The notes: generated by a model not told the origin, from the sequence alone. Positions 2,758 through 17,291 are shown, numbered from the stretch's first letter. The stretch: DNA of 17,291 nucleotides from a virus (IMGVR_UViG_2541047683_000005), one strand, 5' to 3'. Numbers and translations are program-made.

Positions 2758-4817
2758 TATGGGTTCCTCAAGAAGCACGCTGCCGCTACAGAATAAACCT
2801 TCGATTCGTTCTGGACTGTCTTAATCTGTTCATCCAGCTCAGCCAGGAGATCAGAAAGTTTTGTCGGGTTTCCGGTTTCCGGGTGAGCTATAGTCAGCTC
2901 AGGATTGGCAACAGCCATGTCCCTGGCAGCCATAAGGTCATAGCTGTTGGATGAGAGAACCTGCCCTGTATCTGGATCAACGCTGACGTCCCCTCTGTGT
3001 TCACCAGCCGATGAGAAAGCACTTTCAGCACGAGGGACAGGCGATTCACTAATTGGCTCTGATGATGTTTCATATCTGACACCATTTTCTTCAAAAACCT
3101 TTTGTATTTCATGGTATTGCTCTTGGTAAGTATCAGATATATCTGATCGCAATGGACCATCAAGCCCTCGCGCCATCCCCCCAACATTTACAGGCTGACC
3201 ATCATTAAGTTGCCTGTATGCTTCATCCATGGCGTCAACATGACTGTTGATGCTCTCATTGCTGGTGTGAAGCACTGGTGACGATTCAATATCGTAATGA
3301 AGCCCCTCATTCAAAATGTGGGCTGCATCAATATCGCTTGGTTTTATTCTTTCCCTCGCCCGGATACCAAAAACTTTTTCTACTGCGGCTTCCAGTTTCA
3401 TATTGCGAAGACGCATACTTACGAGTAACCGTAACTGCTCAGGTGTAACGGTTCCAACCTGAATACCACTGTATCTGAATATATAGGCTTTAAAACCTGA
3501 AATAATTTTTTCCCATGACGAAACGCTTGTCTTTAGAGATGGATTTACTGCATGTGCGGCAACTTCTTCAGCGTATAACCACTCAGGATATGTTTCAGGG
3601 TACTCACCCCTTTTCTTATATTCATAATATTGTGACATCCCATATGCAAATTCAGGATAGTCAGAATGCTTGTTTGCAGATTTAAGTACAGCATTAGCTA
3701 GCTTTCTGGCCTTCCAGTCAGGGTAATGGCGCTGCTCAAGATGAAGCGCCTCATGATGAAGGGTTTCTAACAGTTCTTCATGGTCTTTTAATCCATTAAT
3801 ATTTATTCTTATTATTGGTTCTTTTCCAGAAGCTACTGTCACATGACCTTTATTCAGAAGTATTTCTCCATCACTATTTTTTATTGCTGGTTCATTAATA
3901 AGTTCTATTACTCCTGAATCAGATAAATCACGAACCATTGACTCAATGTTACCATCAGGAGATTGCTGATAATGTTCACCAAAAGTTGATTTTATTTCTT
4001 CTGCAGAAATGTTCGACTCTGTACCATCATGGTTATTATGGGTAGTCAGGTGATGAACGCCACCAAAGACCCCGCCTAAAACGGCATCGACTAACATCGC
4101 CTGACCGTCAAATACCCGGTACTGTTTTGCCATCTCCGTGTAGCCTTTTTCCTCCAGTGTTGCACCGACAGAGTAACGGTTCAGTCCACCGAATCCGGTG
4201 TTGATTGCCACACCTGAGGCAATGCGCGTTGCCAGTGTGGTGCCGACGGCAGCGGGTAAGGCCATACCCACAGCATTGAAAAGGCTCTGCTGCGTTGCCA
4301 GGTTACGCGCCGTAGCCTCATCTACTCCCTTCCCTTTAAAATCCTGATAGGACTGCTCATACGTAGAACCGAAGGCTGTAGCAGCGCCGATGAGTGGGCC
4401 GCCAAACATAGTTGTTCCGATTGCAGGAACAAATTTACCAAGCTCATTTAATACCTCAGCCGCCATTCCCTGGCTGCCTGCATCAGGCTTCACATAGCTG
4501 CGGGCATCCTGTAACTGTTTTCCGATCGTGTCGTATGTATCATTCAGTGTTTTGTCAGCATCAGGGAACATCTCCCGAAAAATATTAACAGTCGGTGCCA
4601 CGTCTGCGGTAAATGCCGGATCGCTAATCAGGCGCTTGCTGAATCCGACGGCAGACTGCGCGAGACCGAGAGCCCCCTCCGCCACGCCGCTCAAAAGTGC
4701 AGTACCTGAACCCTGGAAGGGAGTCGGATCGTAGTCTTCTGGCCTTGCTGGGTTGGCAACTGTTTTGTCGTCAATCCATGCCTGACCTTCTGGAGCCAAA
4801 GAAAAAACATCAGACAT
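2757..4817 (-). CDS. Large hypothetical protein, 686 aa, with glycine-rich hydrophobic segments and an HExxH (HHEALH) zinc-metallopeptidase-like motif
   Basis: ATG at 4817 overlaps the upstream stop as TAATG; GAGGG lies 7 nt upstream. N-terminal third has glycine-zipper-like hydrophobic segments (GKFVPAIGTTMFGGPLIGAATAFG; LVDAVLGGVFGGV). HHEALH is encoded at 3741-3758, inside a visibly AT-richer patch (about 3400-4060). Confidence 0.65.
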   Translation of the reverse strand: MSDVFSLAPEGQAWIDDKTVANPARPEDYDPTPFQGSGTALLSGVAEGALGLAQSAVGFSKRLISDPAFTADVAPTVNIFREMFPDADKTLNDTYDTIGKQLQDARSYVKPDAGSQGMAAEVLNELGKFVPAIGTTMFGGPLIGAATAFGSTYEQSYQDFKGKGVDEATARNLATQQSLFNAVGMALPAAVGTTLATRIASGVAINTGFGGLNRYSVGATLEEKGYTEMAKQYRVFDGQAMLVDAVLGGVFGGVHHLTTHNNHDGTESNISAEEIKSTFGEHYQQSPDGNIESMVRDLSDSGVIELINEPAIKNSDGEILLNKGHVTVASGKEPIIRININGLKDHEELLETLHHEALHLEQRHYPDWKARKLANAVLKSANKHSDYPEFAYGMSQYYEYKKRGEYPETYPEWLYAEEVAAHAVNPSLKTSVSSWEKIISGFKAYIFRYSGIQVGTVTPEQLRLLVSMRLRNMKLEAAVEKVFGIRARERIKPSDIDAAHILNEGLHYDIESSPVLHTSNESINSHVDAMDEAYRQLNDGQPVNVGGMARGLDGPLRSDISDTYQEQYHEIQKVFEENGVRYETSSEPISESPVPRAESAFSSAGEHRGDVSVDPDTGQVLSSNSYDLMAARDMAVANPELTIAHPETGNPTKLSDLLAELDEQIKTVQNESKVYSVAAACFLRNP

Positions 4818-7348
4818 TATTCAACCCTCACGACAATAGCTTTATTGGTTCTGGGATCTGTTGCCCAGCGTCCGCTACCATTTACAAGCCGATACCGGTT
4901 ATTGCCGATATTAACTGGCGTGAAATTTGACACTGCATTTACGTTAAGTCCGGCATCTTTCAGTGCTTGTTTCGCAGATGTGGTATAGCGATCTTTGAAA
5001 GTAGATTTATCCATGCCGAAAGGCATTACAACGTCGCCGCCATTAAAACCATTGTATATACCGCCAGTAGCATACTTCACGGCATCAGCTACAATGTCTG
5101 TATCAGGCATACTGGTTCTTACCGTAGATGCATCACCAGATTGATAAGCTATTCCTGCATAAGCGGCTTTGAAAAGGCTATAACTGATCTGGCGTAACTG
5201 CGGGTTACGGGCAAATGCATTACCTACCTGTTCGTCGAAAGCGTCTTTCATCTTATCTTCGCTCGGCAACTGTACCGGAGTTATGCCCGCATTCTTCATG
5301 GCCTTCGTCGGATTCAGTAGTTGGTCGCCGGAAAGAATAACCTTTGCAACGTCGTACTTGTTCATCGTCGGCTTATACCCGATGAACTGACTATATGGGA
5401 TCGTCGGCTTGGTGTTGTCGTACTGGTTATCCGGCGTGCCCAGCAGCAGCGCAGAATAGGCTGTTGCCGCACTGTTCGGAGCAATTACAGATGCCACCTG
5501 CCGTATTGCTGGCGCAGGCAGCTTCTCCCCCATGCTCTGCAACAGTTTAATTGTCTGGTCAACGTTCTGAGTGCCGCGCACCTGCTGTGCCAGCGCAGCC
5601 GCCTCTTCACTGTTGAGGATTGGGGCATTAATTCCCAACGCGCGTAAGCTTTCCTGCGACGAGAAACGGTTAGCCACCTCGGCAGTGATGTCGTCAGGGT
5701 TGTTGCTGGTGATCGGCTTATAGGCTCCGATTTCCACCGCTGCACTAAACGGATTATTCTGCCTCTGGGTTATTACCTTCGTGGCTGCCGCCGATACCCG
5801 GTCGAATAACTCCGCACGAGACGCATACCCCTCCCCTGTTTCACCAGTATCCGGGCGCAATTGCTCAACATATGCGGTAATGCTGCTTGTCGGCATGTTG
5901 CGGAAAGAGCCTATATACTGTCCGGCGATCTGCAAATTTCTGAACTCGATATATCGCAGGTTTCCTTCTCTGACACCATAAGCTGCAATGAACTCATCCT
6001 CACCAGGTGGGTTAGGAAATTCAACGCCACGCATAAACGCAGCCGTCGCATCGCGAACCCTGCTATCGAGCATCGTTCTATATTCAGCCTGCTGCTGTCT
6101 GGCTAATGCATCCGTCTGTCGCAACACGCTGGCCTGATCTGATTCATTTAAAGCATCGAACCAGGCTACACCGGTATAACGTTTATTTTTTGTCGGTAGC
6201 TGAGAAAGCCCCAGTGCGGCACTAACACCTGCAGTTAACTGCTGATCACTGTATGGCTGGCTACCGTTTTCATGATGGATAATGGCTGCACAAAGCGCCT
6301 TCAGGGTATCAGGATTTGATGCATCGAGAGGCTCATCAGCAGAAACGCCAAGTTGTTCGCACACTGCTTTGATATACGACATAGTGTCATTTTTATCAGT
6401 AGGCGGTGCCCAGCGATTAATTATCTCGCTGACGGTATCAATACCCTGCCGCTGATACGACATCAGGTTCCGCCCTAATGCACGAATACCGTGTTCAGGG
6501 GTTTCGAATTTGGCAAAGCGACCATCATCACCAGTCTGCCCAACCCACGGATTAGTTTTGCTGTATTCAAGATTGCCGGGGTTATTGTTGCGTATACCGC
6601 GGGTACGATCGGAAGAGCCACTATCTGCTACAGCACGGCGAGATCCAGCAGCAGTATCGCTTAACTCGCCGTTTTGCTGTCTTACCTGAAGATAGTTTGC
6701 TCCAATAGCATTTTGAGCAGTTGCTTTTGCTGTTGCTTCTTTAAACTCGATTTTCTTGGCCTGGATTTGCTCGTCGCTCCAGCCATGCGCAATACCGTAA
6801 TCCTCAATTTGCTGGAAAGTTTGCGTATTAGCCAATATGTATGCTGCGTTGTCGCCATATAATGCTGCGGCATTTTTACCATTATTCAGCAGTGTCGCCT
6901 GAAACTGGCCTTCTTCGTAGGCATTTATTTGCCCTATCTCGTACCTCCCGGCCTGCGTAGTGAACTGAATGCGCTGCTGCTGCGCCTGCTGCATGAAAGC
7001 ATTACGAGCCTGTTCATCCGGCAGCGACATAGCCAGTTGTTCGACCTGAGCATCAAACTGCTGTGTATACTCATGGCCTTTTCCAATAGCATTTTTCCCT
7101 TTCAGATTAAGCAATCCTGTTTCAGGATTATTCAGCAGATCACTGCCTGTCTGACTGAGTTTAAGGGATGCCTCCTGAACCAAGGCAATATTGGCGCGCT
7201 GTTTTGCCTGACCAAGAACATCAATTGCCTCTGTCCCTGCCCGAACAAAAGCATCACCAATACCTGGCTGAGAAAACGTCTGCAAGCCTGCTGACTGAAC
7301 TCCACGGCTCTCAACCTGACGTCCGGATACTGTTGGTACGACTGGCAT
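4817..7348 (-). CDS. Large hypothetical protein, 843 aa; candidate phage virion-internal protein (function unassigned)
   Basis: ATG at 7348 with GGGGG 6 nt upstream; stop overlaps the next gene start (TAATG at 4815-4819). Gln/Ala/Asn-rich N-terminus typical of phage structural proteins. Conserved-looking segment RNNNPGNLEYSKTNPWVGQ...RWAPPTDKNDT at about aa 251-330 (nt about 6239-6598). Confidence 0.65.
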   Translation of the reverse strand: MPVVPTVSGRQVESRGVQSAGLQTFSQPGIGDAFVRAGTEAIDVLGQAKQRANIALVQEASLKLSQTGSDLLNNPETGLLNLKGKNAIGKGHEYTQQFDAQVEQLAMSLPDEQARNAFMQQAQQQRIQFTTQAGRYEIGQINAYEEGQFQATLLNNGKNAAALYGDNAAYILANTQTFQQIEDYGIAHGWSDEQIQAKKIEFKEATAKATAQNAIGANYLQVRQQNGELSDTAAGSRRAVADSGSSDRTRGIRNNNPGNLEYSKTNPWVGQTGDDGRFAKFETPEHGIRALGRNLMSYQRQGIDTVSEIINRWAPPTDKNDTMSYIKAVCEQLGVSADEPLDASNPDTLKALCAAIIHHENGSQPYSDQQLTAGVSAALGLSQLPTKNKRYTGVAWFDALNESDQASVLRQTDALARQQQAEYRTMLDSRVRDATAAFMRGVEFPNPPGEDEFIAAYGVREGNLRYIEFRNLQIAGQYIGSFRNMPTSSITAYVEQLRPDTGETGEGYASRAELFDRVSAAATKVITQRQNNPFSAAVEIGAYKPITSNNPDDITAEVANRFSSQESLRALGINAPILNSEEAAALAQQVRGTQNVDQTIKLLQSMGEKLPAPAIRQVASVIAPNSAATAYSALLLGTPDNQYDNTKPTIPYSQFIGYKPTMNKYDVAKVILSGDQLLNPTKAMKNAGITPVQLPSEDKMKDAFDEQVGNAFARNPQLRQISYSLFKAAYAGIAYQSGDASTVRTSMPDTDIVADAVKYATGGIYNGFNGGDVVMPFGMDKSTFKDRYTTSAKQALKDAGLNVNAVSNFTPVNIGNNRYRLVNGSGRWATDPRTNKAIVVRVE

Positions 7349-7444: not shown

Positions 7445-7651
7445 TTACTCACCCCCCGATGCAAAACCATTCTGATTAAGCCAGGCGTTTACGGCATGTC
7501 TGACAATCTGCGCCACGCCTGGTAATGGCTGATCAGGGTGATTGTTCACATGGTCGATTCTGTACTGCTTAAGGCGCATCACGGTCTGTGCATCCAGATG
7601 AACGGAACCACCTCTGACATCGCCTGTGTTCAGGTCATTAATACAATTCAC
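7445..7651 (-). CDS. Small hypothetical protein, 68 aa, first gene of the giant-protein operon (GTG start)
   Basis: ORF with GTG start (plus strand 7649-7651 is cac) preceded by AAGAGGAA 7 nt upstream. It lies just downstream of an intrinsic terminator and 96 bp upstream of the 843-aa gene. No recognisable domain. Confidence 0.45.
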   Translation of the reverse strand: MNCINDLNTGDVRGGSVHLDAQTVMRLKQYRIDHVNNHPDQPLPGVAQIVRHAVNAWLNQNGFASGGE

Positions 7652-7753
7652 AGCAATTTCCTCTTACTGACTAAACTATGCACATTATCGATCGAAAAAA
7701 GTGGTAGATAAACATATTTCTATCATAAAAACAGATTGATTGAGTTCAGATCC

Positions 7754-7777
7754 AAAAAAAGCCGGATTGCTCCGGCT
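7754..7777 (-). terminator. Rho-independent terminator (minus strand)
   Basis: Plus strand reads aaaaaaa-GCCGGA-ttgc-TCCGGC-t. On the minus-strand RNA this is a 6-7 bp GC-rich stem with a 4-nt loop followed by a U7 tract. It sits about 240 nt downstream of the 138-aa gene and upstream of the 68-aa gene. Confidence 0.7.
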
Positions 7778-8017
7778 CTGTGCTTACTTCTGGTAGTTAC
7801 GCCATACTGATTTCCCGATCCCATCTATCCCCATTTCTTTTTCAGTGCGTTTAAGCGACCGTTTCAGGTCTTCTAAATTATCCGGTTGCTTCGGTGGCCT
7901 CTGTGCCTTCCTGGAACATTCCAGTCGTCGCATTGATATGTAATACCGTTCCTTGTCAGTTCCCCAACTGCATTACTTCACCCCATCGCGCCGCCGCTCT
8001 TCGATACAGGGTTTTAG

Positions 8018-8434
8018 TTAGCCTCCGGCTCTTCCGTAGCGCTGTTCTGGTGGATTCACATAGCCCCTTTCTTGCAGGTATTCGCGAATATCAGACATCA
8101 GGAGACGGTTAACCGTGCTCCTGTCTTTTCTCTGGTAAAGGCGTCTGGTGATCATGAAGTAGTTAGCAATGACCTCCGGTATATCCCTGACGCTGATACA
8201 TGCTGTATGCTGGTCAATAGCTTCAATCATCTCTTCACGAGTTACAAAAGTCTGGCGTAAACGAGTGATCACACCATGTACATCTGAATGATCATTTATA
8301 CGCTTATTTTGGCGCTTCGCGCTCTCGACTGTGACACTGACAACAATGTCAACTCTTTGTTTCTCCGCCATTTCATCCACAATGTGATCACCTGCACGGC
8401 GACCATGTGCGTGATCATTTCTTACTATTTCCAT
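8018..8434 (-). CDS. Hypothetical protein, 138 aa
   Basis: ATG at 8434 with GGAGGAG 6 nt upstream; overlaps the 3' end of the FinO-like gene by 20 nt. No recognisable motif. Last gene before the terminator. Confidence 0.55.
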
Positions 8435-8912
8435 TCATCTCCTCCAGTAGTTTTCCTGCGTGCATCTGTTGTAGTGGTGTTACCTCGCCGCACGGCTGGC
8501 CTTTCAGGTCGTAACGCGCGCCACCAGCTACCAGGGCGCGGTAATAGCGCGGAGTCTGCACATAACGCGCCAGCGTTGCGCGTAGTGTTCCCTGTCCGAG
8601 TGAAATACCTCTCGCGGCAATATCCTGTATCAGGTCGTCAAATATCCCCACCTTAAGCGGCTTAGGTGATTCCGGGCTGAATAATTCAGGCCATAGCTCA
8701 ATAAGACGGTTAACGCGTCTGCGGTTTTTACGCTGCCGTTTGGTCATACGCCGCCGCGGTGTTTCTCCTGTGAGCTTCTGCTGTGTGTTCTGGTTATCTG
8801 GCATCACTTTATGCGCCGATGTGGTTTTATTCTGCTGCTGAGCCGCCTGTGCTGTTTTCTGCGGCGTGCCGTAAATGCCCTTCGGTTTTCTGTTTATGGT
8901 CAGCTTTGTCAT
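8415..8912 (-). CDS. ProQ/FinO-family RNA-binding protein (RNA chaperone-like)
   Basis: ATG at 8912 with GGGGAAGG upstream. The C-terminal half ([23 protein letters not shown]...[35 protein letters not shown]) matches the ProQ/FinO signature as I recall it from E. coli ProQ (PLKIGIFQDL...LRSALRLYTSSWRYLYGV...RVDLDGNPCGEL). N-terminus is basic and Gln-rich. Confidence 0.85.
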
Positions 8913-8948
8913 GCCTTCCCCTGTAATTACTCTGTTCGCTGTTGTGAA

Positions 8949-9374
8949 TTAAAACGGTATCCCGTCCCCGTACGGATCATCGTGCTGGCCTGTCTGTTGC
9001 TGTGCCCTGTTCAGTGCATCAGTAGCCTGCCCCTGCTGGCCTTTTTTGCCGCCCGGTCGCGCCGTTCGCGCACTGATTACGCTGTCTGCGATAACCTGCC
9101 ATCCCTGCCTCGTTTCGCCGTTCTGGCCCGTCCACCGGCTCACCTGCATGTTACCGGCCACGCTCACCAGTTCGCCTTTGTGGTGTTTTGCCAGTGCGTC
9201 AGCCTGTCTGCCAAACGCCAGGACGGATAACCACATCGTCGCCGTTCCGTCATCTGCCTGATTGCATGGAAGAGGGACCGCCATACTCGCCATCGCCATT
9301 TGTGTGCCCTTGCTGGTGGTCTTTAACTGCGGGTCAGCCACCAGCCGCCCGTAAGCTGATATTTGCGCCGTCAT
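8949..9374 (-). CDS. ssb: Single-stranded DNA-binding protein (SSB)
   Basis: 141 aa with an OB-fold-like N-terminus, a Gly/Gln-rich linker and an acidic C-terminal tail ending DDPYGDGIPF (canonical SSB tail ends DDDIPF). ATG at 9374 with GGAGA upstream. Confidence 0.85.
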   Translation of the reverse strand: MTAQISAYGRLVADPQLKTTSKGTQMAMASMAVPLPCNQADDGTATMWLSVLAFGRQADALAKHHKGELVSVAGNMQVSRWTGQNGETRQGWQVIADSVISARTARPGGKKGQQGQATDALNRAQQQTGQHDDPYGDGIPF

Positions 9375-9434
9375 GCTGTTTGTTCTCCGGTTTTAACGTG
9401 ATAGTTACGCTTGTTTACACTCTTACAGTGAAAT

Positions 9435-9563
9435 TTTGCGGGTTACAATCGCACATTTGCGGGTTATAACTGCCGTTTTGCGGGTTACGTGCGGGTTATT
9501 GATTTCCTTTTTAATCATGCAGTTAATTAACTTATACACAGGATAACCCGCATAACCCGCAAC
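9435..9563. repeat. Iteron array with adjacent AT-rich tract: putative origin of replication
   Basis: Four direct copies of GCGGGTTA (three as TTTGCGGGTTA) starting at 9438, 9459, 9480 and 9491 (spacing 21, 21, 11 bp). An AT-rich tract follows at 9499-9540, then two inverted copies TAACCCGC at 9544-9551 and 9553-9560. Located between the replication gene stop (9585) and the ssb start (9374). Confidence 0.75.
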
Positions 9564-9584
9564 TTTTTACCTCACACAGGGAAG

Positions 9585-11711
9585 TTAATCTTCTGCTTCA
9601 GGCTGGAACATCAGCACGTAAAAAATATGCTGCTTCCCGCCAATCCTGCCGAGCGCCTTTTTCTTGTAACGGCGGTCGCCTCCCGCTTCCAGCATTCCGG
9701 CAGCACTCAACGCGCGGGCAAAGTGGGACGGGTTAAATCCCTGTGCGATCTCCCCCTCAAACACATGCGGAAACGTGTAAAAACGGAACTCATCATCTTC
9801 ATTTCTGATACTCCCCTTTCTGTATCCGGCAAGGTCTTTAATCGGTAAATCACGCTCATCGCTGTTTGGGTAGGGAAGGTATCTACTGAACCCGAACGAC
9901 GACAAAAACGCCTCAGCCTGTTCAACCATCTGTTTAAATTCCCTGTTGCCCGTGCCGAATTCCTTCACCCAGGCATTAAAGTTATGCTGAACTGCATCAC
10001 GGCACGCCTGAACATCCCAGCCTGTAACATGACCGGAAAGCACAAGCGCGGCCTCCAGTACGGCGAATCTTTCCCCCACGCGGTGAACCTGCTCGCCGTA
10101 GCTCTCCGGTATCAGGTTGCGCCACCGCTCGCGACATGCCCTTACCGCGTCCTTTGCCTCCTGCTGGTGGCCTGCCAGCCATTTAACCCACTCACGACCT
10201 GCCGCCCCGTGATTTTCTGTCCAGGCATCTTTTAACGCGTCTGCGTGCGCCTTTCCGGTGCTGTATTCGTGAAACTGCGAGGCCTTTTCCATCGGCACGT
10301 TAAGCAGACGGACAAGCTGCCCCGCTTTAATTTTTATCCCTTCCGTTTTGAGGAATGTTTCAACGTCCATTTCTCCGGTGCTGATTGCCACCGTGCGCCA
10401 GTGTTTTATCTCCCTGTTGCCGCCGTCCTTCGCCCCCTGTAATTTCCCGGAACCGTTAAACAGCGTATAGGCTGACGTGGACACCTCCCGCGCGTTTCCG
10501 GCCTGGCCTATTTCATCCAGGGGTAACAGCCCGTCATTATGTGCTTCGGCCTCGTTGGCGATACCTAACGCCGTTCCGTACCAGGTCAGCCGTTGCGCGT
10601 CCGGCTCTCCCCATAAACTTGATGCAATGTTCTGTGTGGTGGTTTTACCTGCTGATGATTGCTCAAAAAGATGAACCCCGAAGCCGTCAGCACCCACCAG
10701 CCCGATTAATGGTGCGGATAGCGATACCGCCACACCCAGCATCATGGACGGATTACCACCAGCCAGCCGCGCCACGGTATCGCGCCAGCCCTCCGCTGTT
10801 CCCGCCACGGAATAGCCATTAACTGCGGCAGTTTTTCCGGTAAACAGGATGGGTTTCTCTGATTCACCAATGACCGAACCATCCGGCATGATGTACGCAC
10901 CAAAATGCCAGCCCGTTGTAGTGCTTAGCTGCCATTCCTCATGACTTCCGCTTAACTGCATCCAGTCAGCCAGGATGGCTCTGTATTTGCCGTTGGTCGT
11001 CACGTTAAGACCGTGGTCTTTCAGCAACCGCCAGCCGTCACGGTCACCAATGCCTCCGCACGGGACCGCCATTGTAATGACCTCATGGTTTGCTGGTTTT
11101 TTCCAGCGCATCACGCGGTAATGCTCTTTGCCGATTGTTCCTGTTCCCAGTAGTTCAAGCGGAGAACATAACCACGTCTCAGGCCGGATAATTTCGCCTG
11201 ACTGCTTGTCCACTTTGGGCGTTACCCAGAAAACACCATCGACGCGACTTTCAACACGAGGCTTTAATTCGTCATCATAATTTCCGGTGAAATTTGTCTT
11301 TGCCGGAAGGTTGATCACCAGACTGTTACCGCGTTCCGCATCATCCTTCAGTCCAGCCATGCGCGGTGTCCAGTCCTCCGGCTGCTGGTCAACAAAGCTG
11401 CGGTAGCAACGCGCCTCCTTCACACCCGCCACTGCAAGCAGTGTCGCTATCTGTGTAAGGTGCTGCTCTGATATTTCACCAGCACGATAAACGCGCACGT
11501 AATAGCGCCCTTTGTCGATGATTTGCGTGTCTGCCAGACTCGCCAGTTGTTCCGGTCCAAGAATAACTGGATGTGTATCATCTGCCGCAATATGCTTTCC
11601 GGCCCATTCGCTCCACTCTTTCGCATGTGCCCAGGCATCACTACCCGCAAAGATAATCACCTCCGTCATTTTGTCTTTCGGCTGGTGCTTTAAATTCGGT
11701 GCGCGTTTCAT
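9585..11711 (-). CDS. Replication protein, 708 aa (primase/helicase-like with P-loop; DUF927-like)
   Basis: Large ORF with a P-loop-like motif (QSSAGKTT) mid-protein. Start ATG overlaps the upstream stop as ATGA (11708-11711). Position between alpA/regulators and the iterons matches pri-rep genes of P4-like and PICI-like elements. Family assignment is from memory of domain architecture, not a search. Confidence 0.7.
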   Translation of the reverse strand: MKRAPNLKHQPKDKMTEVIIFAGSDAWAHAKEWSEWAGKHIAADDTHPVILGPEQLASLADTQIIDKGRYYVRVYRAGEISEQHLTQIATLLAVAGVKEARCYRSFVDQQPEDWTPRMAGLKDDAERGNSLVINLPAKTNFTGNYDDELKPRVESRVDGVFWVTPKVDKQSGEIIRPETWLCSPLELLGTGTIGKEHYRVMRWKKPANHEVITMAVPCGGIGDRDGWRLLKDHGLNVTTNGKYRAILADWMQLSGSHEEWQLSTTTGWHFGAYIMPDGSVIGESEKPILFTGKTAAVNGYSVAGTAEGWRDTVARLAGGNPSMMLGVAVSLSAPLIGLVGADGFGVHLFEQSSAGKTTTQNIASSLWGEPDAQRLTWYGTALGIANEAEAHNDGLLPLDEIGQAGNAREVSTSAYTLFNGSGKLQGAKDGGNREIKHWRTVAISTGEMDVETFLKTEGIKIKAGQLVRLLNVPMEKASQFHEYSTGKAHADALKDAWTENHGAAGREWVKWLAGHQQEAKDAVRACRERWRNLIPESYGEQVHRVGERFAVLEAALVLSGHVTGWDVQACRDAVQHNFNAWVKEFGTGNREFKQMVEQAEAFLSSFGFSRYLPYPNSDERDLPIKDLAGYRKGSIRNEDDEFRFYTFPHVFEGEIAQGFNPSHFARALSAAGMLEAGGDRRYKKKALGRIGGKQHIFYVLMFQPEAED

Positions 11712-12010
11712 TTTTTGCCCCTGAATGCGTTAATCATGTTCTTTATTACCTGAATATTTGCCCGTGCTTTCTCTTTACTGGTGGGCTTACTGCGTGGTGC
11801 TGCACATACCAGTGAAAAATCACGCCGGAACTGATGAACGGGCATCACACAGTCATAGTCGTACCCTGCGCGGCGGTATGTAATGTGCCGTTCATACACG
11901 GAATTAATAACCACGATGTCGCCATATTTATCCCGGAAAATATCCCCGATCCTGATTTTCGGGTGAGTCTGTCCGCTGGCATTTAAGCCAGTAAATTTAA
12001 TCTTCTTCAT
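11708..12010 (-). CDS. Small hypothetical protein, 100 aa (possibly DUF4222-like)
   Basis: ORF translationally coupled to the replication gene (ATGA overlap). Sequence pattern IGDIFRDKYGDIVVINSVYERHITYRRAGYDYDC resembles small conserved prophage proteins; family assignment is tentative. Confidence 0.5.
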   Translation of the reverse strand: MKKIKFTGLNASGQTHPKIRIGDIFRDKYGDIVVINSVYERHITYRRAGYDYDCVMPVHQFRRDFSLVCAAPRSKPTSKEKARANIQVIKNMINAFRGKK

Positions 12011-12012
12011 GT

Positions 12013-12270
12013 TTATTTCCCGGTATGGGGTTCTTCTTTATATTTATGGGCTAACAAATCTGGTAATTGCCTGTATTTATCCTCGGCAATATATTCAGAA
12101 TAATCGACAGCACTGTTCAGTATATCTAACGCCGTTTCATGCTCCAGATTCGAAACTATAAGGAACGTTGCTACTTTTAGCATATTCGCGATATGCAAAA
12201 GAGCATCAATTTCATTTTTTGGCGCTTCGCTGAATTTTTGCTCCAGAAGAATAAATCGTTCATCACGCAT
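12013..12270 (-). CDS. Small hypothetical protein, 85 aa
   Basis: ATG at 12270 with strong SD AGGAGGA 6 nt upstream; overlaps the upstream ORF stop by 8 nt. Acidic, helical-looking protein with no recognised domain. Confidence 0.55.
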   Translation of the reverse strand: MRDERFILLEQKFSEAPKNEIDALLHIANMLKVATFLIVSNLEHETALDILNSAVDYSEYIAEDKYRQLPDLLAHKYKEEPHTGK

Positions 12271-13231
12271 AGTGTTCCTCCTGACGGATGCGGGCAGTAA
12301 ATACCATCACGCAGCCAGCCGGGGATTGCTGACGGGCTTCCTGTTCGCTGGTGGCCTCGATGTGGATTACGCGCGGTTGTGCCGTACTCAGGGCGATAAA
12401 ACGCCAGATAAAATTGTTTTCGCATTTCTGAATAAACAGCGTGTTTTCTTCGCGCCCTTTCCATGTTGCCGAGATATAGCCCATGTCATTGAGCATCTCG
12501 CAGGCATCAACCAGCGTATCAGCGGCTACGTGTACAGTGTTTTTACCGTCAGCTATGCAATCACGGTGCACCGCCAGGAAGGTGTATATAAATTTAGGGT
12601 GAGTTTGGGTATGCTGTGTTCCAGCCATAATCGTTACCTCGTTTAACGGTTTGGTTAGACGCCCTGCATGTGTTGCGAGCACTGCGGGGCGTTGCTCTTT
12701 CAGGTGTATTTCACCTTTGCTTTTTAATTTACTCACTGGTGAAATACACTTCAAGCCTTTTTTTATCATTTTTTTTGCGTATACTGACATACACCAATTT
12801 TTAGGAGATCCAGAAATGGCAACTGGTGCAAAGAACGCAAAATCACAAATGACAACTGTCAGAATCCCACATGAAGTAATGGATGATATTGAGCAACTTA
12901 AAGAACCTGGCGAAAGTACCGCTGGTTTTTTAGTTACTGCCGCAAAAGGCGAGATCAAACGCCGCCAGCGCCGCAAGGCCAAAGAACAGGAATAGCCCAC
13001 CAGCAAGCCAGCACATTCACCATAATGACCCTCGGTTAAAGCTAGGGTCATTACCTCGTCGTTATCCAGAACTGAAACGGCATCAGTAACATTGCTGATT
13101 TCCAGCGCAGCACACACATCAGCGCCAACAAACCACGGCTCGCCGTTGATACTCACTATGCGCACCTGAATGTCATCGAATTTAATGACAGAGATTTCAG
13201 TGCGCCCGGCATAAAAGACAGGTTTACGCAT
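12263..13231 (-). CDS. Bro-N domain protein ORF (322-aa open frame; probably composite, true 3' extent uncertain)
   Basis: ATG at 13231 with GGAGGTGA 6 nt upstream, 2 nt after the antirepressor stop. N-terminal ~70 aa match the Bro-N pattern (INGEPWFVGADVCAALEISN...LDNDE). The middle of the frame is Cys/Ser-rich and looks non-coding: it is antisense to a plus-strand RHH gene and runs through an AT-rich promoter-like region. The last 122 aa have their own SD (GAGGT) and ATG at 12628 and may be a separate gene, 12263..12628. Confidence 0.45.
   Translation of the reverse strand: MRKPVFYAGRTEISVIKFDDIQVRIVSINGEPWFVGADVCAALEISNVTDAVSVLDNDEVMTLALTEGHYGECAGLLVGYSCSLALRRWRRLISPFAAVTKKPAVLSPGSLSCSISSITSCGILTVVICDFAFFAPVAISGSPKNWCMSVYAKKMIKKGLKCISPVSKLKSKGEIHLKEQRPAVLATHAGRLTKPLNEVTIMAGTQHTQTHPKFIYTFLAVHRDCIADGKNTVHVAADTLVDACEMLNDMGYISATWKGREENTLFIQKCENNFIWRFIALSTAQPRVIHIEATSEQEARQQSPAGCVMVFTARIRQEEHYA
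12703..12750. promoter_or_regulatory. Inverted repeat (candidate operator) in the RHH-gene upstream region
   Basis: GGTGTATTTCACC (12703-12715) and GGTGAAATACAC (12738-12749) form a 12/13-bp inverted repeat with a 22-bp spacer, followed by T-runs and a TATACT -10-like hexamer (12780-12785) upstream of the RHH gene SD/ATG. Confidence 0.4.
12816..12995 (+). CDS. Small ribbon-helix-helix (Arc/Mnt/CopG-like) DNA-binding protein, 59 aa
   Basis: ATG at 12816 with SD AGGAGA 7 nt upstream. Protein MATGAKNAKSQMTTVRIPHEVMDDIEQL... has a beta-strand-like TVRIPHEV followed by two helical segments and a basic tail (KRRQRRKAKEQE). Only convincing plus-strand gene; antisense to the long Bro-N frame. Confidence 0.5.
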   Translation: MATGAKNAKSQMTTVRIPHEVMDDIEQLKEPGESTAGFLVTAAKGEIKRRQRRKAKEQE

Positions 13232-13991
13232 GGCTGCTCACCTCCATGCGGCGGGCTAACCAGCGTTGCGAAAGGCGAATTAATTCAGCTTTCCGCTGGT
13301 GGTAGTCCTGGCCTAACTCAATCAGCGTGATATTGCTCTGCTCAAGGTAAGAAAGGTGCTCAAGCTGCAACGTGCTCATGTGGTCGCGTGGTTCGCCTGT
13401 GATGCCGTTCGCCTGCGCCCACTGTTTTGCAGTCATGCCACCCAGCACGATACGCGCCAGCATATTGGCTTCCGTGGTGTAGTGGTGCTGGAGCGTGTTT
13501 TTACCCAGTTCAGCCCGGTACGTCTCCAGCGCGGCGCACATAGGCTTAAAGTGGCTGGCTACGGTGATACGGGCTTTCAGTTCCCGGCGTAACGCTGCGG
13601 AACGTACAGGCGCTATCTTGTGTAGCTCCTCCTCGCATTTGATGAAGTACTGACGAACGGCGCGGCCCTGATCATTGCGTTCGATCATTGCCAGTTCTTT
13701 CGCCATTCCGACACTTAACAGATAGTCTTTACCGGGTCTGCCAGAGTGCTTAATCTTGCTGTAAGCCGCGCCATTCGGGCTTTTCCCCAAATTTGGGGAA
13801 ATTGTTTTATGGACTGAGTAATCGTACCCAATGGTGAAGTCATATTCAGAGATGCGATCAGTGATCCATGTAGAGAAGTCTTTTCCCACGCCCAACGCTT
13901 TGTGTAACGCTTTTGCGCTAACAACAGCGGCTTCACGCCCGCCAATAACGCCGGATGCTACCGGAATAATTGCAGCAAAATTCTTAAGCAT
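13224..13991 (-). CDS. Phage antirepressor, AntA/AntB-domain protein
   Basis: 255 aa. N-terminal region VVSAKALHKALGVGKDFSTWITDRISEYDFTIGYDY...GRPGKDYLLSVGMAKELAMIERNDQGRAVRQYFIKCEEEL matches the AntA/AntB antirepressor signature. ATG at 13991 with GGGGGTGA upstream; overlaps the Rha-like gene by 8 nt. Confidence 0.75.
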   Translation of the reverse strand: MLKNFAAIIPVASGVIGGREAAVVSAKALHKALGVGKDFSTWITDRISEYDFTIGYDYSVHKTISPNLGKSPNGAAYSKIKHSGRPGKDYLLSVGMAKELAMIERNDQGRAVRQYFIKCEEELHKIAPVRSAALRRELKARITVASHFKPMCAALETYRAELGKNTLQHHYTTEANMLARIVLGGMTAKQWAQANGITGEPRDHMSTLQLEHLSYLEQSNITLIELGQDYHQRKAELIRLSQRWLARRMEVSSHA

Positions 13992-14682
13992 GTTTCACCC
14001 CCAGAGACGGCGCTGACGTTATCAGGCTGGCGAACGTCTCCATGCGGCGGGCAACCTCCCGCACCGCTTCGGTCGGTGCCATGCCGTTCTGTATCGCTTC
14101 GTGAAATGCTGCCTGCTCGATTTTCTGCATGACCACCAGCAAACCTAACTGCTGATCGCTGGCTGCCTGGCGTTCACCTGTTACCAATCCGGCAAAACGG
14201 TTTTCTGTGCGTGCCAGATTGATGTAGTGGTGACGTTCTGCACCCAGTGCTTTAAGTCCCTCACGGCTTTCGTGATAGCCCGGCAGATATTCGCGGCGTA
14301 CGGGTTCAGCGGCGCGACGCTTTGCAAATGCCTTTGTAACATCCAGCTTGAAGCGGTTCATGCGTTCATCATCACGACCGCGCACAATGCGACACATGTA
14401 ATCAAACTGATCGCTATTCAGGAGGGCAAACTTATGTTCACGCTCCCCGTTTTGACGGGTTTTTAATCGCTCCGTTTGAAACGGAAGGATGCCCAGTTCA
14501 CGCAATCCGGTTTTGTGCTTCTGAATGAGCGAATAAAGGTTTTTGTGCTTTATGCCAATACGCTCAGCAAATAAGCGGGAATCAATGCGCGACTCTGCTT
14601 TGTGGCGAATCAATATATCGCTCTGGCTGGCTTCAGGCTGAACGAAGCCCTGCCCCTGTACGGGCATATATGGACGGTTCAT
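13984..14682 (-). CDS. Putative phage regulatory protein (Rha-like)
   Basis: 232 aa. Segment DSRLFAERIGIKHKNLYSLIQKH...FALLNSDQFDYM resembles the Rha-family pattern (SR-IAE-GK-H-NVLR-I ... Y-L-D). ATG at 14682 with AGGAG 7 nt upstream. Assignment is moderate. Confidence 0.5.
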   Translation of the reverse strand: MNRPYMPVQGQGFVQPEASQSDILIRHKAESRIDSRLFAERIGIKHKNLYSLIQKHKTGLRELGILPFQTERLKTRQNGEREHKFALLNSDQFDYMCRIVRGRDDERMNRFKLDVTKAFAKRRAAEPVRREYLPGYHESREGLKALGAERHHYINLARTENRFAGLVTGERQAASDQQLGLLVVMQKIEQAAFHEAIQNGMAPTEAVREVARRMETFASLITSAPSLGVKHA

Positions 14683-14758
14683 TGAAAACTCCTGCTGTCG
14701 AATTAAGTTACTTTTATTTGCTAGTGGATAGCTTGGGCAATAACCCGTTGCTATTTAA

Positions 14759-14956
14759 TCAAGCAGCCGTTCCGCGTGATTCGGCAATACGCTGATTGAT
14801 CCATTCGTCAATTTCACTTTCAACGAAAGCAATCGCTCGCGAGCCAATTTTAACTGATGCAGGAAATTTACCTTGCCCCATAAGGCGATAAATCCATGCC
14901 TTGCTATATCCAGTTCTACGCTGAACTTCTGTTAAACGAATAAGCGTATTTGACAT
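14759..14956 (-). CDS. alpA: AlpA-family transcriptional regulator (prophage CP4-57-type regulatory protein)
   Basis: 65 aa. MSNTLIRLTEVQRRTGYSKAWIYRLMGQGKFPASVKIGSRAIAFVESEIDEWINQR matches the AlpA helix-turn-helix and the conserved E-IDEW-xQR C-terminus. ATG at 14956 with GAGGT upstream. Confidence 0.9.
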   Translation of the reverse strand: MSNTLIRLTEVQRRTGYSKAWIYRLMGQGKFPASVKIGSRAIAFVESEIDEWINQRIAESRGTAA

Positions 14957-15026
14957 CTATTTACCTCATAACGTCTACTCAATTTGACGAGGTAATCATG
15001 GCACAGAAATAACGAATATTTTCATA

Positions 15027-15135
15027 CCCTCAGGCCTAATGGTTACCGGAAGGAAATTAACCCTAAGGGTGATGGTAAAATTGACGGAGAAGATAAAAAA
15101 ACACCCTCAGGGTAACAGTAAATCACCCTCAGGGT
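15027..15135. promoter_or_regulatory. Array of helically phased palindromic sites (ACCCTnAGGGT) upstream of alpA
   Basis: Palindromes ACCCTAAGGGT (15060-15070), ACCCTCAGGGT (15103-15113) and ACCCTCAGGGT (15125-15135), plus a half-site-like ACCCTCAGG (15027-15035). Start-to-start spacing is 33, 43 and 22 bp, roughly multiples of one helical turn. Lies in the 194-bp intergenic region between the 265-aa gene stop and the alpA start. Confidence 0.6.
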
Positions 15136-15150
15136 ATGCGGTATGGTGCG

Positions 15151-15948
15151 TTAATCCGGCTTTGCGTTCTTTTGGCTGTTGTCTCGGTTAATAGGGCAGG
15201 CAGTCCTCTCTATGAGCGTTGCAAGAGCATTACTTGCCCCCCACTGCTTAAGCTCCCTGGTTATCGCTTCTTGATTTCCCCTGGTGGCAAAATCATTTTC
15301 TGGATCGTAATTGGCCCACTCTCTGTTTCTAATCTCAATAGCCTTAGCTAATGGGTCTTTATCCCAGTATTTATATAAGTGTATCGGGCGCTCTTGCTCT
15401 AACTGCTCTATCCTTGCCCTTAACTCTGCGTTTTCTTTTTCCAGCCTTGCGATTTGGGATAATAAATCATCCTCTGTACGCAACTCTTTCTTTTCAATAT
15501 CGCGTCCTTGTGCCTCGTCATTTTCAGAAGAGTTAGCGCCTTCCAGCTTCGTTAACGCGTCAAGGACATCGGGAAAAATTGCGAAAATTTCACCCCTTAT
15601 AAATCCAATGTTCTCAAATTCGGGATCTTCCCAATAACCGGACACCAGAAAACCATTTTCATCCCTCTCACCAGGTAAACAACCACGTTTCCGAACCGCA
15701 TTCAGATTTCTATAAAGAACATCATAATCAAATTCATCCCGATACGGGTTACAAAAAGATTCCAACAGCTTAAATTCATTTACTGTGTACAGGCGGATAT
15801 GTTCTCCGCTTATTCTCCTGAGTATCCAAGTTATGACATCTGAAACATCATAATCATCACCAGCGACCTTAAGCACGACCTCAAGAAATTCACGTAAAGA
15901 AATAAAATCTTTTTTGTATTCGTTTAATTCGGCATGAATATCAATCAT
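15151..15948 (-). CDS. Hypothetical protein, 265 aa, with central coiled-coil segment; AT-rich orphan gene between int and alpA
   Basis: The track ORF starts at 15954 but that codon is GTG directly abutting GAGGT. The ATG at 15948 has GAGGT 6 nt upstream and is the preferred start. Contains a heptad-like segment LLSQIARLEKENAELRARIEQLEQE. The gene is visibly more AT-rich than its neighbours. No enzymatic motif recognised. Confidence 0.6.
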   Translation of the reverse strand: MIDIHAELNEYKKDFISLREFLEVVLKVAGDDYDVSDVITWILRRISGEHIRLYTVNEFKLLESFCNPYRDEFDYDVLYRNLNAVRKRGCLPGERDENGFLVSGYWEDPEFENIGFIRGEIFAIFPDVLDALTKLEGANSSENDEAQGRDIEKKELRTEDDLLSQIARLEKENAELRARIEQLEQERPIHLYKYWDKDPLAKAIEIRNREWANYDPENDFATRGNQEAITRELKQWGASNALATLIERTACPINRDNSQKNAKPD

Positions 15949-16076
15949 ACGCACACCTCAGCGTCCTCTACTGTAGTGGCTGTACCAGTCCGTCGAGGTG
16001 TACGGATTTTCGGGAGCGATCCTAGACACAGCCTTTTCTTTCGTCGCTCAAAGTCTACTACTGTATACGCAACCAG

Positions 16077-17291
16077 TCATCCACATTTTCCGAACTTGCC
16101 ATGCACCACGTTACCGCCATGTTCGAGCGAATCCATATAGTCGGCGTACCACTGGAGCATCTCGCGCCGCCCGTCCAGATATTGCGCATGATTGTACGTG
16201 CCACGAATTGAGTTCTTATCAACGTGTGCAAGCTGCGTTTCTATCCACGCGGTGTTATAGCCCTGCTCATGTAAAATCGTGCTCATCGTGTGCCGGAACC
16301 CATGACCAGTAACGCGCCCAGAATAGCCAATACGACGAATAAGCACGTTCATCGCCATTTCACTCATCGGCTTACTGTGCTGGATTCGACCAGGGAAAAT
16401 AAACTGATACTGCCCCGTCATGTGTTTTAACTGTTCCAGAATAGCGATCGCCTGTTCTGAAAGCGGCACACAATGAGGACGGCGCATCTTCATGCGTTCT
16501 TTCGGCACTTCCCACAGACGATTATCAAAATCAATCTCCTGCCACTCTGCCTGTCGTAATTCCCCTGGACGGAGTCCTGTCAGAATCAATAATCGCATAC
16601 CCAGCTTGACGATCTGGCTTCCGGTGTACGTATTAAAAACGCGGAAAAATTCCGGCAGTTCGTCGGCCTTCAAATAGGCGTAATGCTCTTTTTTGTGTGG
16701 AGCAAATGCGCTTGCCAGATCTGGTGCGGGGTTATATTCAGCGCGTCCGGTGATGATTGCGTACCGGAACACCTCGCCGCATCGCTGGCGAACCTTACGC
16801 AATTTTTCGGTCGCCCCACGGTCATTAAGACGGGAGAGAACCGCGAGCAACTCCATTGGCTTAATTTCTGCGATCGGCCTGCCGCCAATGTACGGAAAGA
16901 CGTCTTTTTCAAACGTCTCGATCATTTCCTCGGCGTATGACGATGACCACCTGTCGATCCGCTTTTCGTACCATTCGCGAGCGATACCCTCAAAAGTATT
17001 GCCAAATTTGCTAGCCTGTTCTCGCTTTTGGGCTTTTCTGACCTCACTTGGATTTATACCACCAGCAAGAAGCCTTTTAGCCTCATCCCTTGCCGCCCTG
17101 GCATCAGACAGAGACACATCAGGGTACACACCCAACGACAACATTTTGGGCTTTCCTGCAAACCTGTAGCGCAGTCGCCACCCTTTCGAACCGTTCGGCT
17201 CAATGAGCAACGAAAGCCCGTTACCGTCATTGAGTGTATAAGCCTTTTCTTTCGGCTTCGCGCGCCTGATGGCAAGGTCTGAAAGCAGCAT
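16077..17291 (-). CDS. int: Tyrosine recombinase, P4-family phage integrase
   Basis: 404 aa with ATG exactly at the window edge. N-terminus (AIRRAKPKEKAYTLNDGNGLSLLIEPNGSKGWRLRYRF) is the integrase arm-binding domain typical of P4-like integrases. C-terminal catalytic signatures are present: LRPGE (Arg), HGFRHT (His-x-x-Arg) and RGTYNHAQY (Tyr nucleophile). Confidence 0.9.
   Translation of the reverse strand: MLLSDLAIRRAKPKEKAYTLNDGNGLSLLIEPNGSKGWRLRYRFAGKPKMLSLGVYPDVSLSDARAARDEAKRLLAGGINPSEVRKAQKREQASKFGNTFEGIAREWYEKRIDRWSSSYAEEMIETFEKDVFPYIGGRPIAEIKPMELLAVLSRLNDRGATEKLRKVRQRCGEVFRYAIITGRAEYNPAPDLASAFAPHKKEHYAYLKADELPEFFRVFNTYTGSQIVKLGMRLLILTGLRPGELRQAEWQEIDFDNRLWEVPKERMKMRRPHCVPLSEQAIAILEQLKHMTGQYQFIFPGRIQHSKPMSEMAMNVLIRRIGYSGRVTGHGFRHTMSTILHEQGYNTAWIETQLAHVDKNSIRGTYNHAQYLDGRREMLQWYADYMDSLEHGGNVVHGKFGKCG

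Follow-up and report, generated by a model that had tools for sequence, protein, structure and literature searches.

The DNA stretch IMGVR_UViG_2541047683_000005, a viral sequence of 17,291 nucleotides (nt) referred to throughout as the window, lies within an island of the Escherichia coli chromosome that is very probably a coherent mobile element, a satellite of the phage-inducible chromosomal island (PICI) type built on the backbone of the E. coli PICI family (int, alpA, DUF927 primase and ssb). Its late operon carries three very large genes whose products, judged by homology, are the internal-virion or ejection proteins of podophages related to epsilon15 and phiV10 (Uetakevirus). Phages of the phiV10 group are the likely biological partner of the island, a reading well backed by recombination between the two, swaps of whole gene cassettes, co-occurrence in the same genomes and analogy with the related island EcCIMP1. 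The best overall explanation, which we advance tentatively, is a PICI that is helped by phiV10-group phages and would load its own ejection proteins into the capsids of the helper; a role of the same proteins in superinfection immunity is its close rival. PICIs have mostly been studied with long-tailed helpers, with hijacking of the terminase and resizing of the capsid, and the exploitation of podoviruses is hardly known. The island raises the concrete question of whether satellites re-equip virions with DNA-delivery proteins of their own or use these proteins as immunity.

Extent of the island and its late operon

The chromosome of E. coli strain E1 contains the window at 100% identity. In the E1 locus (L001), the 3' end of a tRNA-Gly gene (glyU) recurs as a direct repeat of 19 nt, TTGGAGCGGGCGAAGGGAA, at positions 10310 and 29439; the two copies are 19,129 nt apart, giving an element of 19.13 kb that extends ~1.67 kb to the left of window base 1 and ~180 nt to the right of base 17291. 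Both ends thus lie just outside the window, at the sides where the preliminary description of the sequence had proposed to look for a tRNA or att site and for a direct repeat. The giant genes (window 1-7348) fall inside the element, of which the segment 8018-17291 covers only a part.

In the 20-kb flanks, the right side carries, from the integrase outward, tRNA-Gly (glyU), actS and xdhA, whilst on the left side a 104-residue (aa) gene is followed outward by 1.36 kb of non-coding DNA, then by a GH15 gene and by the ETT2 secretion island. Pfam, PHROG and the annotation revealed no gene for terminase, portal, capsid, tail or lysis, either within the element or beside it in these flanks. That the segment might simply be the early region of an ordinary complete prophage, the objection raised in the preliminary description, is ruled out by the chromosomal genes that lie beyond the att repeats; since the repeats enclose 19.1 kb without virion-building genes, the element is a satellite rather than the early region of a prophage. 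It shows the features by which PICIs are recognised, namely site-specific insertion with direct repeats, alpA near int, a primase and origin of its own and a size within about 8-20 kb, and it misses, as PICIs do, the genes to build virions and lyse cells (terminase large subunit, portal, capsid, tail, lysis), with the exception of the three internal-virion genes. A capsid-forming PICI was considered and rejected, with no terminase, portal, capsid or head-tail connector gene of its own detected by Pfam, PHROG or annotation, as was a complete Uetakevirus prophage, the phage-homologous part consisting of the gp15-gp17 block and the next small gene, with homology stopping at the gp15 start codon.

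The same architecture, again ~19 kb, is present between dinD and yicC in strain VTB96815v, where the integrase and its neighbour gene differ, and further copies occupy glyU in strains with or without ETT2. This second site with another integrase, together with trimmed relatives that are ordinary PICIs, supports the satellite identity proposed earlier. The giant genes are found at ≥98.5% identity in 37 complete genomes, and the trio-bearing lineage is restricted to E. coli at 97-99% identity; in other genera, a scan of species representatives gave four loci only, each a complete prophage. In current annotations, islands of this type appear as strings of hypothetical proteins or under the label 'incomplete prophage'. 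As a side observation, in E1 the island sits between glyU and ETT2 (left flank, L001 246-8403), and ETT2 is intact, riddled with insertion sequences (IS) or absent depending on the carrier strain.

The late part of the island comprises the following features in the window.

7758-7779, minus strand: strong intrinsic terminator closing the replication operon (from sequence)
7652-7757, minus strand: AT-rich stretch, presumed late promoter (from sequence)
7445-7651, minus strand: 68-aa late-operon leader gene (PHROG 4934)
4817-7348, minus strand: 843-aa homologue of epsilon15 gp15, an internal virion protein (PHROG, E 1e-294)
2757-4817, minus strand: 686-aa homologue of epsilon15 gp16 (PHROG, E 2e-136)
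1-2778, minus strand: homologue of epsilon15 gp17, with 918 of its 925 aa in the window (PHROG, E 2e-295)

The three giant proteins had been listed as unassigned candidates for defence cargo, an assignment that gives way here to homologues of a podophage ejection set encoded in a late operon. Pfam gives no match for any of them, and the assignment rests on homology, gene order, a transglycosylase domain and the reported behaviour of epsilon15. By tblastn, the trio shares 79%, 74-83% and 89% aa identity with epsilon15 gp15, gp16 and gp17, and 66%, 30% and 27% with the phiV10 equivalents. Residues 249-402 of the gp15 homologue (~window 6143-6604) match solved lytic transglycosylase domains; bases 5822-7348 of this gene are of phiV10 type and the rest is of epsilon15 type. 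In complete Uetakevirus prophages, the genes for the tail tube proteins and for a 'virion core protein, T7 gp14 family' (NCBI name) come before the trio, and the tailspike gene comes after it. Epsilon15 is reported to eject internal proteins during infection (PMC8954989).

The order of the late operon is the 68-aa leader, the gp15, gp16 and gp17 homologues, a fourth small phage gene and a phage-type terminator. Homology to phage DNA begins exactly at the gp15 start codon and ends in the 75-nt terminator, which is 97-99% identical to that of phiV10-group phages; an Erwinia prophage carries, at the same position, an 82% homologue of the 104-aa gene that follows gp17. The trio occupies the late (morphogenesis) operon slot of the island, because it is preceded by the terminator, the AT-rich stretch and the 68-aa leader, an 88% homologue of which lies directly upstream of a protease-capsid fusion gene in another PICI. 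With respect to a minimal 8.3-kb island, the trio adds 8 kb, inserted between PerC and the cos end.

The trio genes are under purifying selection. They are intact in seven of the eight trio-bearing copies with annotation that were examined, the exception being a frameshifted gp15 in UTAK-6, and in four copies compared the open reading frames (ORFs) are full length with dN/dS values of 0.18-0.29 (gp15), 0.03-0.15 (gp16) and 0.05-0.25 (gp17). The middle of the gp16 homologue (~3380-3983) is a variable domain in which GC content dips to 40%, and it is here that the gp16 length classes (~521, 630 and 686-690 aa) diverge from one another. The idea that the low-GC insert is a satellite-specific effector domain was abandoned, as a 71%-identical 690-aa form is found in an ordinary Uetakevirus contig.

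Exchange with phiV10-group phages and comparison with known satellites

The first ~1500 nt of the gp15 homologue are far more variable among copies of the island than the remainder and form a mosaic of phage alleles: the AH19D088 copy has 0-4 differences per 150 nt from phiV10, and the E1 copy is HEMP4-like. The remaining cassette is near-invariant among copies and ~40% diverged from phiV10. At the protein level, the N-terminal half of gp15 is conserved across the genus and the C-terminal half is type-specific; the island gp15 joins a phiV10-clade N-terminus to an epsilon15-clade C-terminus, a combination seen in none of the phages sampled. In F11, ETEC1749 and UTAK-6 a complete swap has put a phiV10-type cassette on the same island backbone, and OkiPb01688, judged by a match at the junction only, probably carries a phiV10-type cassette as well. 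The F11 trio is 95.8% identical over 7.6 kb to the resident prophage of E1, with crossovers in the 5' half of gp15 and in the terminator. The gp15 mosaic and these whole-cassette swaps show that the island and phiV10-group phages repeatedly meet and recombine. Recent gene conversion in situ in E1 was rejected, the island allele being only 89% identical to that of the resident prophage.

Structural genes of phiV10-group prophages are present in 541 of 5426 complete genomes (~10%). Using a composite query in which an island-specific segment is joined to a phage-specific one, a second locus is found in 25 of the 37 carriers (68%), compared with phiV10-like prophages in 516 of 5389 other genomes (odds ratio ~20, p 3e-17, counts uncorrected for strain relatedness). 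The second locus was checked in three of the 25: the annotation of the E1 prophage was examined, and SCEC020022 and GF43 are both in the list of phiV10-group prophages. Among relatives with the DUF927 primase that lack the trio, a phiV10-like prophage is present in at most ~16-20%. E1 itself carries a complete phiV10-like prophage at guaA (1,462,762 to ~1,505,000), with tRNA-Arg and YafO-family toxin genes.

The closest studied relative is EcCIMP1, a 19,963-bp PICI at a tRNA-Thr gene of E. coli MP1 that is helped by the podovirus vB_EcoP_Kapi1 (Pick, Stadel and Raivio 2025, PMC11773190). Induction of this related island by its helper and its transduction have been demonstrated experimentally: excision requires Kapi1 to be present and induced, Kapi1 transduces the island at low frequency, and Kapi1 titres are not lowered whilst Kapi1 lysogens gain immunity to Kapi1 (PMC11773190). 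EcCIMP1 genes 017-019 resemble 'DNA transfer' proteins of Kapi1, and a role in packaging was guessed by the authors (PMC11773190). In the MP1 locus, the TOPRIM/DUF927 primase is followed by a DUF2824 protein, a 225-aa protein, a 'phage DNA ejection protein' and a 906-aa protein with a transglycosylase domain, a block that corresponds to P22 gp14, gp7, gp20 and gp16 and resembles Kapi1 DNA only at its 5' end (81%).

The present island and EcCIMP1 share a size of ~20 kb, a tRNA gene as site, the gene set int, alpA, antA, DUF4222, icd and DUF927 primase (so ordered in EcCIMP1) with iterons at 21-nt spacing, a podophage ejection block after the primase that is most helper-like at its 5' end, the presence of PerC and the lack of terminase and capsid genes. 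Identity at the aa level is 66% for int, 78% for AlpA, 77% for AntA and 62% for the DUF927 primase, with DNA matches confined to antA, primase, int and alpA (69-80%). EcCIMP1-like islands are grouped into types I-IV by BLASTn (PMC11773190). In contrast, the cassette of EcCIMP1 is of P22 type (gp14, gp7, gp20, gp16) and that of the present island of Uetakevirus type (gp15, gp16, gp17 and a small gene); ssb, FinO and a P27-type cos end are extra in the present island; the att sites differ; and a Kapi1-like prophage occurs in only two of 21 EcCIMP1 strains, compared with a phiV10-like prophage in 25 of 37 carriers here. EcCIMP1 has been tested by experiment, whereas the present island is known from sequence alone. 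The two related PICI lineages have each, independently, acquired the ejection operon of a different podophage family.

With EcCICFT073-type PICIs (Fillol-Salom et al. 2018, 2019; PMC6739421), which depend on the helper terminase (PMC6739421), the island shares the int-alpA-primase layout and the cos site at the far end. It differs in having no Rpp (DUF1441) and no terS, in a cos of P27/HK97 rather than lambda/phi80 type and in the podophage virion genes it carries. The preliminary description had left the choice between a P4-like and a PICI-like element open, and it is the PICI-type backbone that stands. P4 and the island do have in common a P4-family integrase, an AlpA-type regulator, a primase/helicase replicon with iterons at two loci (ori and crr in P4) and a size that is an integral fraction of the helper genome. 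However, the partner phages of the island are not P2-like, its primase is of DUF927 type and not P4 alpha, and no Psu or Ogr/Delta homologue was found by Pfam and PHROG among all island genes (Sid and Cnr, which have no family model, were not sought), so that a P4-like satellite is rejected. Epsilon15 gp15-gp17 and phiV10 gp18-gp20 resemble the trio in gene order and in the lytic transglycosylase domain, and the terminator is as in the phiV10 group; unlike them, the island trio is encoded outside a phage and its gp15 is chimeric. SaPIbov5 Ccm is reportedly a homologue of a helper capsid protein that is encoded by the satellite and resizes capsids. Both cases are copies of helper virion genes in a satellite late operon, with the difference that the copies in the island are ejection genes and imply no effect on capsid size. 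In the literature searched, nothing directly on point beyond EcCIMP1 was found on satellites together with ejection or internal virion proteins, epsilon15 or phiV10, nor was a Uetakevirus-type cassette in a PICI, a chimeric gp15, exchange of whole cassettes or coexistence with a cos end of another type.

The packaging signal and the possible functions of the trio

The left non-coding end of the island contains ~55 nt that are nearly identical to the annotated cos region of phiP27. In an E. coli HK97-like prophage the matching cos sequence lies exactly between an HNH endonuclease gene and a P27-family terS, and related Burkholderia phages carry the matching sequence at the ends of their genomes. 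Under cos packaging by a P27-type phage, read ends would be expected at GAGGCGGGCG. In two of five aligned trio copies (VTB96815v and F11) one G is missing from the GGCGGGCGG run within the cos core (L001 10726-10743), which may mean that the packaging site is truly damaged or may be a sequencing error in a homopolymer. IMG/VR was also considered as evidence of encapsidation, and none of the four island fragments in it ends at cos. This cos/iteron end is present at 80-97% identity in ~290 E. coli genomes, and the relatives examined are ordinary PICIs: one carries int, alpA, icd, DUF4222, primase and ssb followed by a protease-capsid fusion and DUF1441, another has terS and DUF1441 in the cargo slot, and the minimal 8.3-kb relative ends with FinO, PerC and the cos end and has no cargo. 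Neither Rpp/DUF1441 nor terS was found in the island itself. The capsid-protease fusion of the BH100N PICI was considered as a copy of a P27-type helper gene and rejected, as no similarity was seen. A model with a podophage as the sole helper does not account for the cos site. A P27-type cos phage may package the island, alone or additionally. Strain E1, which holds the island, the phiV10-like prophage and a further prophage with a P27-type terminase and cos, constitutes a natural system for the question of what the ejection proteins do.

According to the favoured explanation, a resident phiV10-group podophage would induce the island via AlpA, upon which the island would excise and replicate from its iterons, its late operon would be switched on and the three proteins would be loaded into phage-built capsids, with the phiV10-type N-terminal half of the gp15 homologue acting as the docking part. 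Particles carrying the island would then hold an ejection apparatus specified by the island, which could thereby enter cells, helper lysogens included, independently of the ejection type of the helper. That the trio proteins are built into virions for the transfer of the island itself is a serious possibility, if a somewhat doubtful one. It is favoured because the trio sits in the late operon, all three large genes have been retained, the N-terminus of the gp15 homologue matches the helper and homotypic swaps persist.

Several findings weigh against this explanation. The sole recognisable packaging signal is the cos of P27/HK97 type, which is absent from epsilon15, phiV10 and the phiV10-like prophage of E1, and no Uetakevirus packaging signal was found: blastn of the whole island against epsilon15, phiV10, HEMP4, ET358 and the E1 prophage returns only the 5' half of gp15 and the 75-nt terminator. 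Comparison of the late promoter region with phiV10 and with the phiV10-like prophage of E1 reveals no common 11-mer and no common 12-mer, respectively. Prophages with a P27-type terminase occur in 14 of the 37 carriers compared with ~5.7% (odds ratio ~10, uncorrected for kinship), and the phiV10 association is likewise uncorrected. The epsilon15-type cassette of the island was found in no phiV10-like prophage among the 541 prophage-bearing genomes, so heterotypic proteins may not work in phiV10-type virions. Furthermore, the only helper-linked phenotype of EcCIMP1 is superinfection immunity, and its transduction is very rare (PMC11773190).

The last point leads to the close rival of virion loading, which we consider rather doubtful as it stands, that the cassette acts in the resident cell as superinfection immunity, its homologues disturbing the ejection apparatus of incoming phiV10-like phages and so protecting lysogens that bear the island. 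EcCIMP1 boosts the immunity of Kapi1 lysogens without lowering titres, and it contains no known defence system, the ejection block being its main unexplained cargo (PMC11773190). With PADLOC, too, no known defence protein is detected in the present island, where AntA alone resembles, weakly, a candidate family (PDC-S22). Both the tracking of phage alleles by the gp15 N-terminus and the co-occurrence with phiV10-like prophages fit immunity equally well. However, the EcCIMP1 phenotype is not mapped to a gene, cytoplasmic copies would have to reach the incoming channel, and a single chimeric protein should suffice to poison it, yet all three large genes are under purifying selection and copies with a homotypic phiV10-type cassette persist too. 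A different division of labour, which we regard as improbable, would make a P27/HK97-type cos phage the helper and the trio either cargo against competing phiV10-like phages or a passive load, with no part in the transfer of the island. The near-identity to the phiP27 cos and its counterpart between an HNH gene and P27-family terS, the ~290 genomes that carry PICI relatives with this end and the enrichment of P27-type terminase prophages, one of them in E1, all argue for such a helper, and an island dimer (38.3 kb) would fill a P27-type capsid. Fillol-Salom et al. are said to have described in 2022 that PICIs carry cargo against competing phages, which counts in the same direction. On the other hand, the trio lies in the late morphogenesis slot behind a conserved 68-aa leader and not in a separate cargo locus, a weapon against competitors should not associate positively with the prophage it targets (68%), and a swap to the cassette type of the target would disarm it. 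EcCIMP1, with the same kind of cassette and no such cos, is still moved by its podovirus, and the cos core bears the 1-nt deletion in two of the five aligned copies.

Decay is the least probable of these accounts and in our judgement very improbable: a single recombination between a PICI and a Uetakevirus prophage would have left a hybrid whose trio has no present function and persists through recency and gene conversion. The PerC pseudogene in all copies, the truncated Bro-N gene of E1, the 138-aa gene flagged as partial, one copy with an IS insertion and one with a frameshifted gp15 would suit a decaying element, as would the confinement of the lineage to E. coli at 97-99% identity. Against this, the 7.3-kb coding stretch is full length in all epsilon15-type copies examined (E1, VTB96815v, STEC388, AH19D088 and L018), no close phage donor of gp16 and gp17 was detected and their dN/dS values are 0.03-0.25, the island is integrated at two sites, with a different integrase at each, and its hosts are of many origins, and an independent PICI lineage has made the same kind of capture from another podophage family.

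It is a more speculative and on balance unlikely extension of the favoured explanation that podophage-parasitising islands as a rule carry a swappable helper ejection cassette with which they refit capsids with another injection 'serotype'. Such cassettes are so far known from two cases, whose source podophage families are unrelated. If true, a satellite could enter helper lysogens that exclude the helper itself, and the island would be a store of complete ejection modules that are exchanged with resident phages.

Integrase, regulatory and replication genes

All long ORFs of the window are on the minus strand. The int, alpA, Rha/Ant, rep, ssb and FinO genes named in the preliminary description are each confirmed by Pfam at their place on that strand, and the complete set of features to the right of the late operon is as follows.

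16077-17291, minus strand: P4-family tyrosine integrase, 404 aa (Pfam Arm-DNA-bind_3, Phage_int_M and Phage_integrase, E 1e-26 to 1e-33)
15966-16033, minus strand: int-alpA RNA motif, a structured RNA (Rfam RF02996, 45.5 bits against a gathering score of 35.8)
15151-15954, minus strand: coiled-coil protein of 265-267 aa that travels with the glyU-type integrase (annotation, comparison of copies)
15099-15137, no strand: two adjacent 17-nt repeats AAAaCACCCTCAGGGTA, each with the palindrome ACCCTCAGGGT, a candidate operator
14759-14956, minus strand: AlpA-family regulator (Pfam Phage_AlpA, E 2e-19)
13984-14682, minus strand: Rha-family regulator (Pfam, E 4e-7, just above the cut-off)
13224-13991, minus strand: AntA/AntB antirepressor-family protein (Pfam, E 5e-21)
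12816-12995, plus strand: small gene of the YlcI/YnfO family, the sole plus-strand gene (RefSeq annotation)
12263-12628, minus strand: homologue of an Icd-like cell-division inhibitor (Pfam, PHROG, annotation)
11708-12270, minus strand: 85-aa protein and DUF4222 protein, the latter at 11708-12010 (Pfam, PHROG)
9585-11711, minus strand: DUF927 primase/helicase, 708 aa, predicted replication initiator (Pfam, E 2e-46; PHROG 'DNA primase', E 3e-174)
9438-9560, no strand: origin-type iteron cluster in the rep-ssb spacer (motif count)
8949-9374, minus strand: single-strand DNA-binding protein, SSB (Pfam)
8415-8912, minus strand: ProQ/FinO-family RNA chaperone (Pfam)
8018-8434, minus strand: 138-aa protein with an Ant-like segment, possibly a remnant (PHROG; flagged partial in RefSeq)
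7784-8009, minus strand: PerC-family regulator pseudogene, frameshifted (annotation)

The integrase targets tRNA-Gly (glyU), which lies 165 nt past the end of the window. The RF02996 motif is placed between the integrase gene and the gene for the 265-267-aa coiled-coil protein, at whose position the dinD-yicC island has a different gene. The pair of 17-nt repeats lies ~150 nt upstream of alpA, and AlpA is the master activator of Gram-negative PICIs (PMC11773190). In E1, the Bro-N gene between antA and icd (12629-13231) is truncated and fused in frame with icd, creating a spurious 322-aa ORF (12263-13231); in other copies Bro-N is intact at 185 aa, and in some a GIY-YIG nuclease gene replaces antA.

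The 85-aa, DUF4222 and primase genes together form what is, by its conservation, a replication block. The iterons proposed after the rep gene are real: the cluster in the rep-ssb spacer comprises six copies of the 9-mer ATAACCCGC/GCGGGTTAT, arranged as four GCGGGTTAY units (three at 21-nt spacing), an AT-rich spacer and two inverted units, and across L001 the 9-mer has 29 matches at ≤1 mismatch where 10.8 are expected, a number reached in none of 100 shuffles. A second cluster of the same 9-mer is located in the left non-coding end, outside the window, with three inverted units, an AT-rich stretch and three direct units at 21 nt. In the minimal 8.3-kb relative the iteron is CTTGTCCC at both loci with the layout unchanged, and in EcCIMP1 it is GTTGGTTCAA. 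The iteron sequence thus follows the Rep variant whilst the layout is kept; because of this covariation at both loci, both clusters are read as putative Rep-binding sites, a reading the comparison supports, like ori and crr of P4.

Two stretches of the 138-aa protein recall terminases: residues 5-68 are matched by a PHROG 'terminase' family, and residues 19-36 are similar (50% over 18 aa) to the tail at the C-terminus of phiV10-type TerS. A role as a TerS/Rpp mimic was rejected, the 18-residue likeness to the TerS C-terminus not being significant (hhalign probability 0.4%). PerC is frameshifted in every annotated trio-bearing copy examined (eight strains) and intact in trio-less relatives and in phiV10; the frameshift is either an old lesion carried along or purposeful. 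As a minor observation at the left end of the island, outside the window, 70 nt at L001 10497-10567 are 87% identical to part of rlfB/rapB of phages P1 and P7.

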